This document shows positions 6,338 to 11,985 of a DNA stretch of 14,708 bases, piece after piece. This DNA is from a virus: the UHGV virus genome UHGV-1345802. The stretch is one strand, 5' to 3'. The position numbers and the translations under genes were made by a program. Position 1 is the first letter of the stretch. Each line of letters opens with the position of its first letter. The notes under the pieces were generated by a model that saw nothing but the letters and a program-made list of their open reading frames with translations, was not told where the DNA came from and did not search any database.

Positions 6338-6558
6338 GCCACACCTCCCAGACGCTTAAACATTTTTCCGGAGCAAAAGGCTATAAGCGGCATACTGACG
6401 CGGTAATTACGGCCCAGCGGTTCACAAATCACCTTCTGACATTCACGGTCAACCAGGCTAACACGTAGAACATGCCCTGCAGGCGTGGTGTACCACTGAC
6501 CCGGACGAGGACAACGGAAAGTCTGATTGGTAAAACGTTTGAAAATATTCCGGATCAT
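6334..6558 (-). CDS. Hypothetical small protein (74 aa)
   Basis: ATG at 6558 with GGGGG 5 nt upstream; ATGA overlap with the Rha-gene stop, and its own stop overlaps the next start. Confidence 0.5.
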   Translation of the reverse strand: MIRNIFKRFTNQTFRCPRPGQWYTTPAGHVLRVSLVDRECQKVICEPLGRNYRVSMPLIAFCSGKMFKRLGGVA

Positions 6559-7706
6559 TTGCGCCCCCTTGCCTCTGAAGGGTTCAGCGACAAATTTATG
6601 AGGCAGGCCAGCGCCGAAGCATCATTAATATAGTCATATAAGCTAACAGCCAGCGGAGATTCGGCTTTTGCCAACATAGGATAAAGCTGCTGCAGCCAGA
6701 CCTGATGAATTGATGAAATGTAGGAACAGAGAACGCTGGCGTTATGTGCAACGTCGCTCGGTACAGCAGGCTTTGAAAGCTGTTTCTCCATCTGGTTAAA
6801 GGCATTGATGTATGCCTCTTTGAACTTGGCAGCACGTTTACCCGTGAAACCCATAGCAAGAAACGCAAAACCGTCGCGGGTGATTTGGTAACAAGGGAGT
6901 TTGCGGCCTGATGCGTCGGTGTATTCACTTAACACAAAAATGTGTTCAGTAAATTCAGCGGAACATTCGAGGTTTCTAATTCTATCTAAAACCCGCTCAT
7001 GCCGTTTAGTAAAGTAATTAGCTACTGCAAGAGATGTGGTGACAACGCGACCATTGATAATCGTGATTTCAGGGTGAGATTGGGTTGGGAGAGTAGTCAT
7101 GGTGACAGCCCCTATGTTGAATTCAATGAACTCACCACCAAGGCTTTCCACGACCATATAGGTGGTGAGACGTACAGGGGTGGAAATACCGGTCAACATA
7201 GAACCCGGCCCAACCGAAGTTGGCCCTGCACGCCCCACCATAATTTGGGCGTAACGATGCTCATGACACGAAAAAACCGCATGAGCGCGGTTGTGCTCTA
7301 TATTGAATTTCGGGTTTCCACGCCCGGCACCCGCTTTATAAGGTGCCGGAACAGTGTAACGTCCCGGAATTGCAGAATCAATATGCTGGTGTTCCTTCAC
7401 ACTCAACAAAATCACGCCTGAATTTCCACAAAGGACTAAAGCACTCATGCGGGTAGTCTTTGCGAAGATAGATAACGCGCTGTGTTTCTGGCTCCCAACG
7501 AATAACATGGACATAAAGCCCTCTTCCGTCACGAAACCAGCGGTTAAGTTCCTGCACAACTCGCCCCCCACAGTCAGGTAAAGTTCTCTGTGGTTACTTA
7601 CAGCCAGGTGATTTGGTAATCTGCATTCATGCCGTAACAACAGGTGTTCAGCGACGCTGACCACCAGCTGTTGCGACAAACGGTTATTTGCCGTTAAACT
7701 GTTCAT
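6555..7706 (-). CDS. Rha-family phage regulatory protein with an unexplained ~200-aa N-terminal extension (possible fusion or two genes)
   Basis: Residues from the internal Met at 7100 (MTTLPTQSHPEITIINGRVVTTSLAVANYFTKRHERVLDRIRNL...) look like the Rha (pRha) domain. The frame is open upstream to an ATG at 7706 that overlaps the preceding stop (ATGA). The N-terminal 202 aa match no family I recognise. Confidence 0.6.
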   Translation of the reverse strand: MNSLTANNRLSQQLVVSVAEHLLLRHECRLPNHLAVSNHRELYLTVGGELCRNLTAGFVTEEGFMSMLFVGSQKHSALSIFAKTTRMSALVLCGNSGVILLSVKEHQHIDSAIPGRYTVPAPYKAGAGRGNPKFNIEHNRAHAVFSCHEHRYAQIMVGRAGPTSVGPGSMLTGISTPVRLTTYMVVESLGGEFIEFNIGAVTMTTLPTQSHPEITIINGRVVTTSLAVANYFTKRHERVLDRIRNLECSAEFTEHIFVLSEYTDASGRKLPCYQITRDGFAFLAMGFTGKRAAKFKEAYINAFNQMEKQLSKPAVPSDVAHNASVLCSYISSIHQVWLQQLYPMLAKAESPLAVSLYDYINDASALACLINLSLNPSEARGRK

Positions 7707-8365
7707 GCGTTAGTTTCTCCACAACCAGAAGCAATCGACGCCACGACGCCCGGAGCTGCACACTCGCGGGCGTTACTCTTTTCCGGCGCACAAAAAACAC
7801 GAAATAACAGTGTTAAATGCTCCTGCCACTTCGCCATTACTTGGTAGCTGTTCTCTTCGATTTGCTCACGCTCAGCCTGGTCAATAACTCCATCAGCAGT
7901 TGCCTTGCGTAAGTACTGGGAATGCTTGCCAATCCATTCTATTGACTCCATCAGCCGCTGATTAATGTCACCATTGTCAATGTCATCAATGTCCACCAGC
8001 GGCACAAACACCCCATTACAACGACGCGCTATCGCATCCGTTACATGCCTGGTACCACTGGCATCCTGTAAAACCATGGCCCACTCAAGTGGAAAAATTT
8101 GATCCCCACCGCTACGCAGTCTGTTATGCAATTGATCTTTCGCTGGGGTGATATCATCAGATTTATACAAACCAAGAATTTCCGCTGCTTCCTCATAGCC
8201 ATGAGGTAAATCAGCAATCGTTCTTCGTATTGCTGCCACCAGCCATGCTGGTTGCTTATCAACTTTCCATTCAGGTTCTTTACCCACGGTTAATTCCTCG
8301 TTTCTGTGGTTACGTTTACGCAGTTGAACCGCTAACTTTTTAATAGCACTCAGGTAATCCATCAT
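7703..8365 (-). CDS. CII-position regulatory protein (CII/YdaT-like, tentative)
   Basis: About 220 aa directly downstream of cro, the slot used by lysogeny-establishment regulators. Start is ambiguous (ATG 8365 or 8362, or ATG 8398); either overlaps the cro 3' end. Family is a tentative recollection. Confidence 0.4.
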   Translation of the reverse strand: MMDYLSAIKKLAVQLRKRNHRNEELTVGKEPEWKVDKQPAWLVAAIRRTIADLPHGYEEAAEILGLYKSDDITPAKDQLHNRLRSGGDQIFPLEWAMVLQDASGTRHVTDAIARRCNGVFVPLVDIDDIDNGDINQRLMESIEWIGKHSQYLRKATADGVIDQAEREQIEENSYQVMAKWQEHLTLLFRVFCAPEKSNARECAAPGVVASIASGCGETNA

Positions 8366-8579
8366 TTGGATTGGGGTAAATATCAGGACGCAGTTCATGA
8401 GGGGTCACGGACCAGTTTCCCAACTCACAAAGTTGTAAAACCCGTTCTGACGGGACTTGATTGTTAATTACCCAATTGGCGACGGATTGAGTGGACTTAA
8501 AACCAAAGCGACGGGCTACTTCAGATAAAGATTTTCCCGCAGCCTTTACTGCTTTCTCTGTGTAGTTTTGAGATGACAT
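8340..8579 (-). CDS. cro: Cro-type HTH repressor
   Basis: 79 aa with an HTH (SLSEVARRFGFKSTQSVANWV), divergent from the cI-like gene. ATG at 8579 has AGGAG about 7 nt upstream. Confidence 0.75.
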   Translation of the reverse strand: MSSQNYTEKAVKAAGKSLSEVARRFGFKSTQSVANWVINNQVPSERVLQLCELGNWSVTPHELRPDIYPNPNDGLPECY

Positions 8580-8587
8580 ACCTTTCT

Positions 8588-8649
8588 CCTCTGAAATTCA
8601 GAGGGATAATGCTACTTAAAATAGCAAATTGCAACTACTTAAAATAGAA
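8588..8649. promoter_or_regulatory. oR/pR-pRM divergent control region
   Basis: Candidate pR on the minus strand: -35 TTGCAA (8629-8634), 17-nt spacer, -10 CATTAT (complement of 8606-8611). Repeated CTACTTAAAATAG at 8612-8624 and 8635-8647. A 17-bp perfect palindrome CCTCTGAAATTCAGAGG (8588-8604) lies between the -10 and the cro Shine-Dalgarno. Confidence 0.55.
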
Positions 8650-9390
8650 ATGACTAGCGCGTGCGATGTGAGTAATCTTCTACCTATGGTAGAAGAACAG
8701 AAGTATCCAGATTTCGCCAAGAGACTAAACGAATTGATGACAATCAAAGGAATCTCTGTCACTCAACTCAAAAGTCTTGTGGGCGTTACATATGAAATGG
8801 CTCGTCGATACACAATCGGCGCAGCGAAGCCACGTGTCTCTGTCATGAGTAAACTTGCGTTGGCTCTTGGAGTATCAGCTTCATATCTAGAATATGGTGT
8901 TGGAGATAGAGAGGAATGTAAGGAAATGGCAAGCATCCCCAATCCAACAAAGCCCGATGTATACAGGATAGAAGTTTTGGATCTTAGCGTTAGCGCAGGA
9001 CCTGGGACCTATATGCTTTCAGACTATGTTGATGTGCTCTACGCCATTGAGTTCACAACTGAACATGCCCGTTCTCTTTTCGGAAACCGTTCTCAGAATG
9101 ATATAAAAGTTATGACGGTAAATGGAGATAGTATGTCCCCAACTCTTGTTTCCGGGGATCGATTGTTTGTCGACATTTCCGTTCGCCACTTCCAGACTGA
9201 TGGAGTTTACTCTTTCGTTTACGGTAAGACTTTCCATGTTAAACGTCTACAAATGCAAGGCAACAAACTAGCTGTTCTTTCGGATAACCCCGCCTATGAG
9301 AAATGGTACATTGATGAGAAGTCGCAAGATCAGCTTTATGTTATGGGTAAGGCACTGATTCATGAGTCGATTAAATATAATCGACTTTAA
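8650..9390 (+). CDS. cI: cI-type prophage repressor (HTH_XRE + S24 LexA-like peptidase)
   Basis: N-terminal HTH (LNELMTIKGISVTQLKSLVGVTYEMARRY) and a C-terminal S24 domain with GDSMSPTL and a downstream Lys (HVKRLQ). The start has no Shine-Dalgarno (ATG 8650 or ATG 8686; track start TTG 8629), consistent with a leaderless cI message. Confidence 0.85.
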   Translation: MTSACDVSNLLPMVEEQKYPDFAKRLNELMTIKGISVTQLKSLVGVTYEMARRYTIGAAKPRVSVMSKLALALGVSASYLEYGVGDREECKEMASIPNPTKPDVYRIEVLDLSVSAGPGTYMLSDYVDVLYAIEFTTEHARSLFGNRSQNDIKVMTVNGDSMSPTLVSGDRLFVDISVRHFQTDGVYSFVYGKTFHVKRLQMQGNKLAVLSDNPAYEKWYIDEKSQDQLYVMGKALIHESIKYNRL

Positions 9391-9624
9391 TTAGGCATCT
9401 AGCAATCGTTAAAGCAAACGAGCACAGATGATAAAAGATAAGGATAGAAAATCTTTATACAAATTTTATTTGGCACATTGGTCCATAAAAATGGATTAAC
9501 ACTGAGCTGTTACCCTAAGTAAGAAAAGATAAAGACCATATGTTATCTTTGGGTGCGTTACTAACACAAAAAAAACCAAAATAAAACATAAATAATAGAC
9601 AATTCTATACAACAGGATACGATA

Positions 9625-10710
9625 ATGATTAATGAACGTACTGAAGCGACAGATGGGGTAGCAGATATGATTTCCACCAATACAAAATATTTAGTATGGA
9701 ACAACAAAGGTGGTGTAGGAAAAACTTTTCTTACATATAATCTTGCCGTTGAGTTTGCTATATCTCATCCGGATCAAGATGTTGTGGTTATTGACTCATG
9801 CCCTCAATCAAACGTTTCAGAAATTATTCTTGGTGGCAATGGTACCGGGGAAGAAAATCTAAATAAATTGCGAGACAGAAATGTTACAATCGCAGGTTAT
9901 ATCAAGGAGCGTTTTAGCAAATCTCCTTTGTCTCGTTTAGGAAATGAATCTTCTTACTTTGTACGAGCCCATGATGTTAATGCAAAAATGCCAGAGAACT
10001 TATATATTCTTCCTGGTGATGTCGATCTTGATATCTGTTCACGCTTAATATCTCACATTGGCTCATCCCCAGTAAAAGAAGCATGGAAGAAAAGCCGATC
10101 TTTGCTGGTAGATCTAATAGCATCTTTTGAAGCCGATAAAAACATTTCTGACAGAGCAAAAACATTTTTTATTGATTGTAATCCAAGTTTTGCCAGCTAC
10201 ACAGAATTGGGAGTAGTCGCGGCAAATAGAATAATTATCCCTTGCACTGCCGATGCTGCATCAATTCGCGGAATAAAAAACCTTGTTAAACTTATTTATG
10301 GAGTGTCTATTGACAAGTCAGAACAAGATGAAATGTTCTTAGATTTCAACAAAGAAGCAAAGCAAAACCTTATCGAACTACCTGAACTACACCTTTTCGT
10401 ACAAAACCGCTCAAGAACTAATGAAAGTGATGCAGCAAAAGCATTCAAATCACATGCAGAAGAGATCAAAAGAATCACGGATGACCTGTTAAATACACAT
10501 CCTCATCTGTTCACAAATGTGGCTACTTTCGAGAGAGTTCAAAATGTCAAAGATGGTAATACTCTTGCAGCAATAATAAACCATGAGGGATGCCCTTTAA
10601 GTAGGCTGCAGCATAAGAGTTACACTATCTATGGTATGGCGACCCAAGCTAATAGAGCACAAATTGAAGCACTAGAATCTGATGTTTCAACAGTAGTCAA
10701 GTGTCTGTAA
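9625..10710 (+). CDS. Orphan ParA/MinD-family P-loop ATPase in the rex-equivalent position (candidate superinfection-exclusion or defence moron)
   Basis: Deviant Walker A NNKGGVGKT, then IDSCPQSN and FFIDCNPSF...IIIPCTADAASIRG matching ParA/Soj motifs; 361 aa with a long C-terminal extension. The gene and flanks are visibly AT-rich, and no ParB-like partner was seen. ATG at 9625 (AGGAT upstream); alternative ATG at 9670. Confidence 0.75.
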   Translation: MINERTEATDGVADMISTNTKYLVWNNKGGVGKTFLTYNLAVEFAISHPDQDVVVIDSCPQSNVSEIILGGNGTGEENLNKLRDRNVTIAGYIKERFSKSPLSRLGNESSYFVRAHDVNAKMPENLYILPGDVDLDICSRLISHIGSSPVKEAWKKSRSLLVDLIASFEADKNISDRAKTFFIDCNPSFASYTELGVVAANRIIIPCTADAASIRGIKNLVKLIYGVSIDKSEQDEMFLDFNKEAKQNLIELPELHLFVQNRSRTNESDAAKAFKSHAEEIKRITDDLLNTHPHLFTNVATFERVQNVKDGNTLAAIINHEGCPLSRLQHKSYTIYGMATQANRAQIEALESDVSTVVKCL

Positions 10711-10746
10711 TACAATAACCATGATTTAGAACGAACATAATTCTCG

Positions 10747-10770
10747 CCCGACCAACAGGTCGGGTTTTAT
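10747..10770 (+). terminator. Intrinsic terminator after the ParA-like gene (tImm-like)
   Basis: Stem CCCGACC (10747-10753) / GGTCGGG (10758-10764), loop AACA, followed by TTTTAT. Confidence 0.7.
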
Positions 10771-10985
10771 ACTCGTAGCCTGCTTAATAACACTGTTCCT
10801 GACCCGTTGTATCCATAGTTCCCACTATTTTCCCCAAAATTATTACTATCTAATTAACCTAATAATTAAACCAAAACAAAAGACACTCGATATTTTCTAT
10901 ACGTAACTACACCACATCCCCCCATCTGTGAAAAACCTTTTAATTCATAACGTTATATAGAAAACTAAAAATTAAATACACACTT

Positions 10986-11027
10986 CTACTTTTTGTTGTT
11001 GATTTTTGCTACTTTTAGTAGCATCAT
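10986..11027 (+). promoter_or_regulatory. Candidate pL/oL: near-duplicate of the pR/oR cassette
   Basis: -35 TTGATT (10999-11004), 17-nt spacer TTTGCTACTTTTAGTAG (differs from the pR spacer at 2 positions), -10 CATCAT (11022-11027). Operator-like CTACTT motifs at 10986-10995 and 11009-11021. Confidence 0.5.
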
Positions 11028-11037
11028 TATCTGAACA

Positions 11038-11054
11038 AACAACAGACTGTTGTT
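11038..11054. repeat. 17-bp perfect palindrome AACAACAGACTGTTGTT at the predicted start of the leftward early transcript
   Basis: Read directly from the sequence. Same position relative to the promoter as the unrelated palindrome at 8588-8604 downstream of pR. Confidence 0.5.
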
Positions 11055-11439
11055 AACGAAAGGTTGGTTGTAACACGGCGTATGGCACATGCGTCGTTAG
11101 CGGTCTGGGGACGTTAAAGGGGACAATCCACTCCTTGCTCGGGCAAACAAACCAGGTAGCCGGAATGTGCAAGTCAATGATGATGCTGATAAGACGCCTA
11201 ACCAGCGTGGCGATTCGGTTTGACGCTTGGGAAGAGACCAGGGTGCAACGATGAGGGCATTTATGGAGCCGCGACAAAGTGTGGTGCCGTAACTGGCTAA
11301 GTGCTCTCAGCGTTGTGGTAATCCGCGAAATGGCGCGGCGGTAAGTATGGCGGGGTTACTCTTTCCCCGTTGAGGACACCGGATTGTCAGGTTGACCATA
11401 CGCCTGAGTGACAACCCCACCACAACAGCCACTGCTTTG

Positions 11440-11485
11440 GCGGTACCAGTTTGTACACTTGCTTCCGGCTGGTACCGCTCTTTTT
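11440..11485 (+). terminator. Strong hairpin plus U-tract in the early-left leader (tL-like terminator or attenuator)
   Basis: 10-bp stem GCGGTACCAG (11440-11449) / CTGGTACCGC (11469-11478), 19-nt loop, followed by TCTTTTT. Confidence 0.5.
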
Positions 11486-11622
11486 ACAAAACAGAGAAGA
11501 GCATCACCGGACGACGGGCTCATAACCCAATCCATCCGGGCGGCTGCCACCGCAGGTGTTCTTCTCTGTTTTGTGGAGAAACCAACCGACCTTTCAGGGT
11601 CGATATGATGAGGAGCAGCAAA

Positions 11623-11985
11623 ATGGCTAGCGAACGCAGTACTGATGTGCAGGCATTTATCGGGGAGCTGGACGGCGGCGTATTTGAAACCAAAATCGGC
11701 GCAGTTCTCAGTGAAGTCGCTTCCGGTGTGATGAACACGAAAACCAAAGGTAAGGTCTCACTCAACCTGGAAATCGAACCATTTGATGAGAACCGTGTGA
11801 AAATCAAACACAAACTCTCATATGTTCGCCCGACTAACCGCGGCAAAATTTCCGAAGAAGACACCACCGAAACGCCGATGTATGTCAATCGCGGTGGTCG
11901 CCTGACTATTCTGCAGGAAGACCAGGGACAATTACTGACTCTTGCCGGTGAACCTGACGGAAAACTACGCGCAGCAGGTCATTAA
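11623..11985 (+). CDS. YfdP-like early-left protein (120 aa)
   Basis: ATG at 11623 with AGGAG 7 nt upstream; same length and gene order as the first gene of the CPS-53 yfdPQR cluster (recalled). The longer in-frame upstream extension in the ORF track starts at TTG and lacks a ribosome-binding site. Confidence 0.6.
   Translation: MASERSTDVQAFIGELDGGVFETKIGAVLSEVASGVMNTKTKGKVSLNLEIEPFDENRVKIKHKLSYVRPTNRGKISEEDTTETPMYVNRGGRLTILQEDQGQLLTLAGEPDGKLRAAGH

Follow-up and report, generated by a model that had tools for sequence, protein, structure and literature searches.

In phage lambda, cI is divergent from cro, each lytic promoter is covered by a pair of 17-bp operators, and the sites that cooperate lie 23-24 bp apart. 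OL and OR are separated by ~2.4 kb, the repressor contains a self-cleaving S24 domain, the cI mRNA is leaderless, and OR3 lies between the hexamers of the maintenance promoter pRM. Phage HK022 uses different operators, the dyads TGAAC-N5-GTTCA, in which a 5-bp centre is flanked by arms that end in AC and arms that begin with GT. At HK022 pR these operators lie over the transcription start and in the spacer; OR2 and OR3 are 33 bp apart, and the same operator family is used again at pL, where there are three OL sites. The annotated oR3 of HK022 and of HK75, TTGAACTTATGGTTCAA, lies over the start of cI (in HK022, the feature covers locus positions 487-501 and the CDS begins at 494). HK022 CI binds cooperatively to adjacent operators and loops OL to OR, and looping has also been described for lambda CI (PMC8053113). 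[quoted passage not shown] In HK639, the operators are the dyads ATAAC-N5-GTTAT, cargo lies between cI and a putative pL, and a putL-like RNA is annotated after pL.

The DNA considered here, a stretch of 14,708 nucleotides from virus genome UHGV-1345802 (the window), corresponds to the early region of a lambdoid prophage in E. coli. Positions 8300-11500 are 99-100% identical to chromosomal prophages such as that of STEC17-183 (NZ_CP075652), in which cro is followed by replication genes and Q, and in which rdgC, an ead-like gene, xis, and int lie beyond pL. The minus strand of the window carries cro and a cII-like gene with replication genes behind cro, and the plus strand carries, in order, cI, a cargo gene, a terminator, and pL. 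As in lambda, cro (8340-8579, minus) and cI (8686-9390, plus) are divergent; 106 bp separate them. The 79-aa Cro-like HTH protein, encoded by the first gene of the pR operon, matches Pfam YdaS_toxin and HTH_3, PHROG 35 (transcriptional repressor), and the Cro structure PDB 3bd1, and the CII-like ORF occupies 7703-8398 (minus). Within ORF 6555-7706 of the same strand (383 aa), tandem Rfam matches to C4 antisense RNA (82 bits) and isrK RNA (62 bits) are found at 7158-7346; the C4/isrK DNA also encodes a Pfam Ash match (residues 117-213), with a Rha domain behind it. The region resembles a c4/antirepressor module of the P1 immI type, situated in the pR operon, and the ORF may in part be an RNA locus.

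A gene for a ParA-like ATPase (9625-10710, plus, 361 aa) lies between cI and pL, the position that rexAB occupies in lambda. HK639 likewise has cargo there, whereas HK022 does not have such a gene between cI and pL. The ParA-like gene is cargo, outside the switch, and may be an accessory or exclusion gene expressed in the lysogen; a PADLOC search with it gave no meaningful match. Behind it, a terminator-like hairpin at 10746-10765 (plus; an 8-bp stem with 6 GC pairs, then a T run) would end the cI-ParA transcript upstream of pL.

Two stretches of the window, 8606-8652 read on the minus strand and 10981-11027 read on the plus strand, are alike at 36 of 47 positions, in keeping with the sequence-only reading that pR and pL are near-identical. 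They make up the longest inverted repeat recovered in a repeat search (47 nt, 77% complementary), and in an exhaustive scan 36/47 is the top score for any 47-nt inverted repeat in the 14.7-kb window, compared with maxima of 29-33 in 15 dinucleotide-preserving shuffles. The promoter strings quoted in that reading are present as quoted: on the minus strand, TTGCAA (8634-8629), a 17-nt spacer (TTTGCTATTTTAAGTAG), and CATTAT (8611-8606); on the plus strand, TTGATT (10999-11004), a 17-nt spacer (TTTGCTACTTTTAGTAG), and CATCAT (11022-11027). The spacers are identical except at positions 8 and 12, and an additional CTACTT copy lies 5' of each -35 (at 8635-8647, CTACTTAAAATAG, and at 10986-10991, CTACTT), again as had been claimed. 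A scan of the window for CTACTTNNNNTAG yields three copies against 0.06 expected, and none of 200 shuffles contained at least three. The shortness of the motif and the AT-richness of both regions would favor a chance likeness of two intergenic regions; such an origin is already refuted by the shuffle controls and by conservation in diverged relatives (see below), and its probability is negligible.

The two blocks are very probably the control regions OR and OL of an immunity module that belongs to a lambdoid E. coli prophage, and appear to be homologous promoter-operator cassettes of one repressor that point outward from cI. The orientation originally given to the two early operons also agrees with gene content: pR would be directed into cro, cII, and the replication genes (minus) and pL toward recombination and the int side (plus). 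It is because of the surrounding gene layout that these names and directions are correct.

The repeated unit within the blocks is a 17-bp 6-5-6 dyad, nnCTAC-N5-GTAGnn. A half-site family of the form CTACTT...TAG had been proposed, and it is indeed present at both promoters, but its symmetry had been overlooked: the 13-mer is the core CTAC-N5-GTAG of the dyad. The pattern CTAYN5RTAG has four exact matches in the window, every one of them inside the two control regions. OR1 (8610-8626, TGCTACTTAAAATAGCA) occupies the pR spacer and extends over the first two nucleotides of the -10 hexamer, with its centre at about -19 from the predicted pR start; five of its six arm pairs are symmetric, and its CTAC/TAG core does not vary in relatives. 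OR2 (8633-8649, AACTACTTAAAATAGAA) is 23 bp from OR1 and overlaps the pR -35 by 2 nt. On the other side, OL1 (11007-11023, TGCTACTTTTAGTAGCA) is a perfect 6-5-6 palindrome that fills the pL spacer, and OL2 (10984-11000, TTCTACTTTTTGTTGTT) lies 23 bp from it, overlapping the pL -35 by 2 nt; the right arm of OL2 is degenerate, GTTG for GTAG, and several relatives have a perfect GTAG arm at this site. Thus, the geometry at pR and pL is identical. One operator comprises spacer positions 3-17 and two -10 bases, and the second, 23 bp away centre to centre, shares two bases with the -35. If the transcripts start 7 nt after each -10, the operator centres fall near -19 and -42. A further operator, OR3 (8678-8694, TTCTACCTATGGTAGAA), which was absent from the earlier account, is a perfect 6-5-6 palindrome centred on the cI ATG at 8686, 45 bp from OR2.

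Scored with a position weight matrix (PWM), the five sites range from 13.5 to 21.6, compared with 11.0 for the next-best site in the window and a mean shuffle maximum of 10.7. OR1 scores 20.9 (maximum in 200 shuffles, 15.3), OL1 has the highest score of the window (21.6), and OL2 the 13.5, with sites scoring at least that averaging 0.08 per shuffle. Since the matrix was trained on the same five sites that it scores, the comparative evidence carries the weight. The same scan of the window found two sites at OL and no distant operator like the far-right site (OFR) of HK022 above chance. A candidate OL3 at 11038-11054 (AACAACAGACTGTTGTT) was rejected, as its PWM score is low and it is missing from relatives with other leaders. 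(This element is itself a perfect palindrome covering roughly +5 to +21 of the pL transcript, with arms that equal the degenerate arm of OL2, and it ends at a mosaic junction with the shared leader discussed below.) Another perfect 17-bp palindrome, CCTCTGAAATTCAGAGG (8588-8604), is found between the pR -10 and the cro ATG. It bears no relation to the CTAC operators. Relatives retain its arms and vary in its centre, the cro Shine-Dalgarno sequence forms one of the arms, and HK022 has OR1 at that position. The element, a conserved dyad outside the operator family, lies at the pR start and might be a distinct site of Cro action or of translational control.

The lytic promoters themselves, pR (8606-8634, minus; predicted start ~8599) and pL (10999-11027, plus; predicted start ~11034), are sigma-70-like. 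In 12 diverged relatives the TTG of the pR -35 and positions 2, 3, 5, and 6 of its -10 are invariant. At pL, TTGAT in the -35 is retained by the relatives, as are -10 positions 2, 5, and 6; their -10 hexamers read CATCAT, CAGAAT, CAACAT, CAATAT, or GAATAT. A generic consensus promoter scan with a threshold of 9 of 12 hexamer matches misses both pR (8/12) and pL (7/12), and for this reason their status as promoters rests on position and conservation. It should be noted that some of the invariant promoter bases double as operator bases, so that conservation there is not independent evidence.

The cI gene encodes a protein of 234 aa with an N-terminal HTH and a C-terminal, self-cleaving S24 domain like that of the lambda repressor (Pfam HTH_3 and Peptidase_S24, the latter at 1.9e-16). 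Ala104-Gly105, Ser149, and Lys186, the expected S24 cleavage site and catalytic dyad, are invariant in the alignment. Over the full length, the protein is 58% identical to HK639 cI and 43% identical to its homolog in HK022; a PDB sequence search with it returned no match. The sequence-only reading had taken the gene from 8650 (8650-9390). A start at ATG 8650 is disfavored: the ORF from this codon is open in all relatives, and by our own count its variable columns are distributed 4:5:7 over the codon positions, but homology to the HK022 N-terminus (MVQQK/MVEEQK) and the start called by PGAP point to 8686, as does the placement of oR3. The true start is most likely ATG 8686, and the ATGAC at 8650 is better read as a -35.

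A promoter for cI would then comprise ATGACT (8650-8655), adjoining OR2, a 17-nt variable spacer, and the -10 TAATCT (8673-8678), all on the plus strand. AAATGAC (8648-8654) and GTAA.CT (8672-8678) are invariant in relatives at fixed spacing, with only 2 of the 16 columns between them conserved. A -10-like hexamer is likewise found 6-7 nt 5' of the cI ATG in HK022 (TATAGT, 7 nt upstream as in the window), in HK022-type relatives (TATTAT), and in HK639 (TATATT). From this pattern we lean slightly toward ATGACT-17-TAATCT as the maintenance promoter pRM (candidate coordinates 8650-8678), whose transcript would start at the A of ATG 8686 and produce a leaderless cI mRNA, as in lambda. With a start at 8686 the centre of OR2 falls near -45, which makes activation of pRM uncertain; the lambda counterpart of this distance is -42. 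A second-ranked candidate for pRM, TTAAAA-18-TAAAAT (8616-8645), is called by the generic consensus promoter scan but lies inside OR1/OR2, where bound repressor would repress rather than activate it.

The sites were then viewed across relatives. A scan of IMG/VR with cI gave 71 loci, ~50 of which have a full-length cI at 73-100% identity. Within this group, the distances of the three OR sites from the cI start are fixed in all loci that reach far enough (-74 or -73, -51, and -6), and where sequence reaches, the OL pair lies 1.5-2.9 kb downstream of the cI start. Footprint alignments of 11-12 diverged representatives show that the operator cores, the TTG of both -35s, and A2 and T6 of both -10s are invariant, whereas the OR2-OR3 segment (the spacer of the proposed pRM), the flanking DNA, the cargo, and the leader of pL vary. 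OR3 is invariant, OR2 is nearly so at cI identities of 73-100%, and OL1 and OL2 are kept. The cII-like gene ranges from 46% to 99% identity across relatives, and the ParA-like gene is confined to those with a 100% identical cI, the others having different cargo.

The operators also co-vary with the DNA-binding domain of cI. Loci with CTAC-type sites all keep GVTYEMxRRY in the HTH. Relatives with cI at 60-67% identity have a similar C-terminal domain and the HK022-type HTH KLTPKAVSKWF, and in these TGAAC-N5-GTTCA or GTAC arms replace CTAC-N5-GTAG. HK639 cI has GISQPAIQKM in its HTH and ATAAC-N5-GTTAT sites. The cro gene follows the same division: it is 80-100% identical throughout the loci with cI at 73-100% and missing from the HK022-type relatives. 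Operators, cI DNA-binding domain, and cro are thus inherited together as an immunity-specific module. Loci L057, L060, L064-L070, L072, and L074 contain mosaic repressors, in which an S24 domain near that of the window cI is joined to an HK022-type N-terminal domain, with matching operators; these show domain-level recombination of immunity specificity.

This co-variation of site and HTH is as expected of a repressor/operator immunity module, and it bears on two other explanations of the repeats. According to one, cI and the ParA-like gene belong to a mobile element, with the 47-nt arms as its terminal inverted repeats. The arms are inverted copies bracketing a 2.3-kb segment, as this would require, but no transposase lies between them, they are built of dyad-symmetric 17-mers with a third such site inside the segment at 8678-8694, they coincide with outward-facing promoter hexamers, and relatives keep both arms around quite different cargo. 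According to the other, the adjacent ATPase uses the repeats as centromere-like (parS/parC) sites, a thought that arises from the presence of a ParA-family gene between the cassettes. However, loci with cI at 73-97% keep every site without this ParA gene (some have a gene only 23% identical to it, and many have none), no gene for a ParB-like partner is present, and the sites track the HTH type of cI. Both were considered very unlikely, to a similar degree, and the co-variation rules them out.

The repressor/operator reading leaves the question of which protein the sites mainly serve. They could be sites chiefly for Cro or another regulator, or cI and Cro could use different sites, with CCTCT-N7-AGAGG (8588-8604) as a separate operator. 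In favor of a role centred on Cro, cro travels with the operators as tightly as does the cI DNA-binding domain, so that co-variation does not separate cI from Cro; the retained arms of the CCTCT dyad and its location at the position of HK022 OR1 would suit a separate operator. However, no such dyad is found at pL or near the cI start, and one arm is accounted for as the cro Shine-Dalgarno sequence. To our knowledge, in the characterized lambdoid switches (lambda, 434, and P22) cI and Cro share one operator set, which also counts against this arrangement. We consider it improbable, and favor cI as the regulator that uses the five operators.

Of 5,426 complete E. coli genomes, 206 carry the segment from cro through OR to cI. 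The segment is absent from all 50,697 phage records searched, whose best match to cI is 58% identical. That match is the repressor of HK639, the closest deposited one; a phage tblastn with cI gave matches that are all below 60% identity, with no lambda record among the top 30 listed. A scan of genome contigs with cI found 3 loci, with an N-terminal domain that is different or matched in part, and a literature search for the literal site sequences gave irrelevant matches only.

Compared with HK022, the window has operator dyads of the same architecture (arms ending in AC, a 5-bp centre, and arms beginning with GT), a site over the cI start, reuse of the operator family at pL, and a possible put-like motif downstream of pL. 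The C-terminal domain of the HK022-type relatives is very close to that of the window cI. However, the half-site is CTAC rather than GAAC and the recognition helix differs, and the operator specificity of the window is predicted to be an immunity type distinct from the TGAAC-N5-GTTCA type of HK022. The wiring differs as well. At pR, the operators lie in the spacer and upstream of the -35 instead of over the start and in the spacer; OR2 and OR3 are 45 bp apart instead of 33; OL has two sites, unlike that of HK022 or lambda; and neither an OFR-like site nor a nun gene was found in the window. HK639 is like the window in having cargo between cI and its putative pL, and the putL-like RNA behind that pL has a possible counterpart in the window, but the HK639 half-site differs, the third site on its OR side does not have its centre at the cI ATG, and its cro gene is unrelated. 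The 17-bp operators, the 23-bp spacing of paired sites over each lytic promoter, and the OL-OR distance of 2,397 bp (11015 - 8618) recall lambda, whose OR3 is placed differently, between the pRM hexamers instead of at the pRM start.

Downstream of pL, a GC-rich, apparently non-coding leader of ~590 nt (11034-11623) precedes the first likely gene (ATG 11624). From ~11055-11064 onward it is shared, at 98-99% identity, with many lambdoid phages that have other immunities, among them cdtI, Stx2c phages, mEp460, and Ayreon, and phage cdtI, which has a different immunity, has its own pL/operator set ~40 nt upstream of the same conserved leader. The identity starts just past the pL cassette, which places a mosaic junction there, as expected at the edge of an immunity region. 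At the start of the leader, 11068-11142 (plus) is a possible putL-like antiterminator RNA segment. The elements ACGGCG...CATGCGTCG...GGG...CAAT are common to the leader, HK022 putL, and the HK639 putL-like RNA; in a short motif alignment the stem-I motif ACGGCG...CATGCGTCG falls at 11074-11096 and the second stem is not clearly conserved. CATGCGTCG has no second exact copy in the window, and its four one-mismatch matches there are within chance expectation. Rfam has no match in the leader, C4 and isrK being its sole matches in the window, and a 367-nt leader folds marginally better than shuffles (z = -1.9). The leader also contains a long inverted repeat, ~11486-11500 with 11559-11573. The shared motif suggests that a put-like RNA may act in antitermination downstream of pL independently of N. 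No N-like gene was seen, and antitermination may be RNA-based (put-like), not N-based as in lambda.

Sequence analysis thus shows where the sites are, how they are arranged, how well they are conserved, and that they co-vary with the DNA-binding domain, and from this we infer how the switch might work. Dimers of the 234-aa cI protein would bind the 17-bp CTAC-N5-GTAG operators through the HTH, and cooperative filling of OR1/OR2 and of OL1/OL2 would keep RNA polymerase off pR and pL in a lysogen. Looping between OL and OR is plausible given the 2,397 bp between them. OR2, adjoining the -35 of the putative and weak pRM, may stimulate that promoter, and OR3 would shut it off when repressor is abundant or when Cro is bound, providing negative autoregulation and a likely Cro target. 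RecA-stimulated self-cleavage at Ala104-Gly105 during the SOS response would then free both lytic promoters.

Taken together, the arrangement is textbook lambda-type; it is useful for annotation, is unsurprising, and raises no new question. The repressor has a DNA specificity without a studied phage representative, and what is new is the immunity specificity within a thoroughly known kind of system. We put about even confidence in the fuller description of the locus as an uncharacterized lambdoid immunity specificity (CTAC-N5-GTAG with GVTYEMxRRY) of E. coli prophages, wired unlike lambda or HK022 and with a possible put-like RNA. That description takes in a two-site OL, an OR pair one position upstream relative to HK022, OR3 on the first codon of a leaderless cI, and the conserved dyad at the start of pR. 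As a naturally orthogonal repressor/operator pair, the system joins the HK022/HK639 series, with half-sites GAAC, TAAC, and CTAC, a series usable for studies of HTH specificity evolution or for synthetic circuits. The resulting proposed map of the switch, with five operators, three promoters, and a corrected cI start, applies to a family of prophages carried by ~4% of complete E. coli genomes, pathogenic strains among them, and helps to predict superinfection immunity groups and SOS inducibility.
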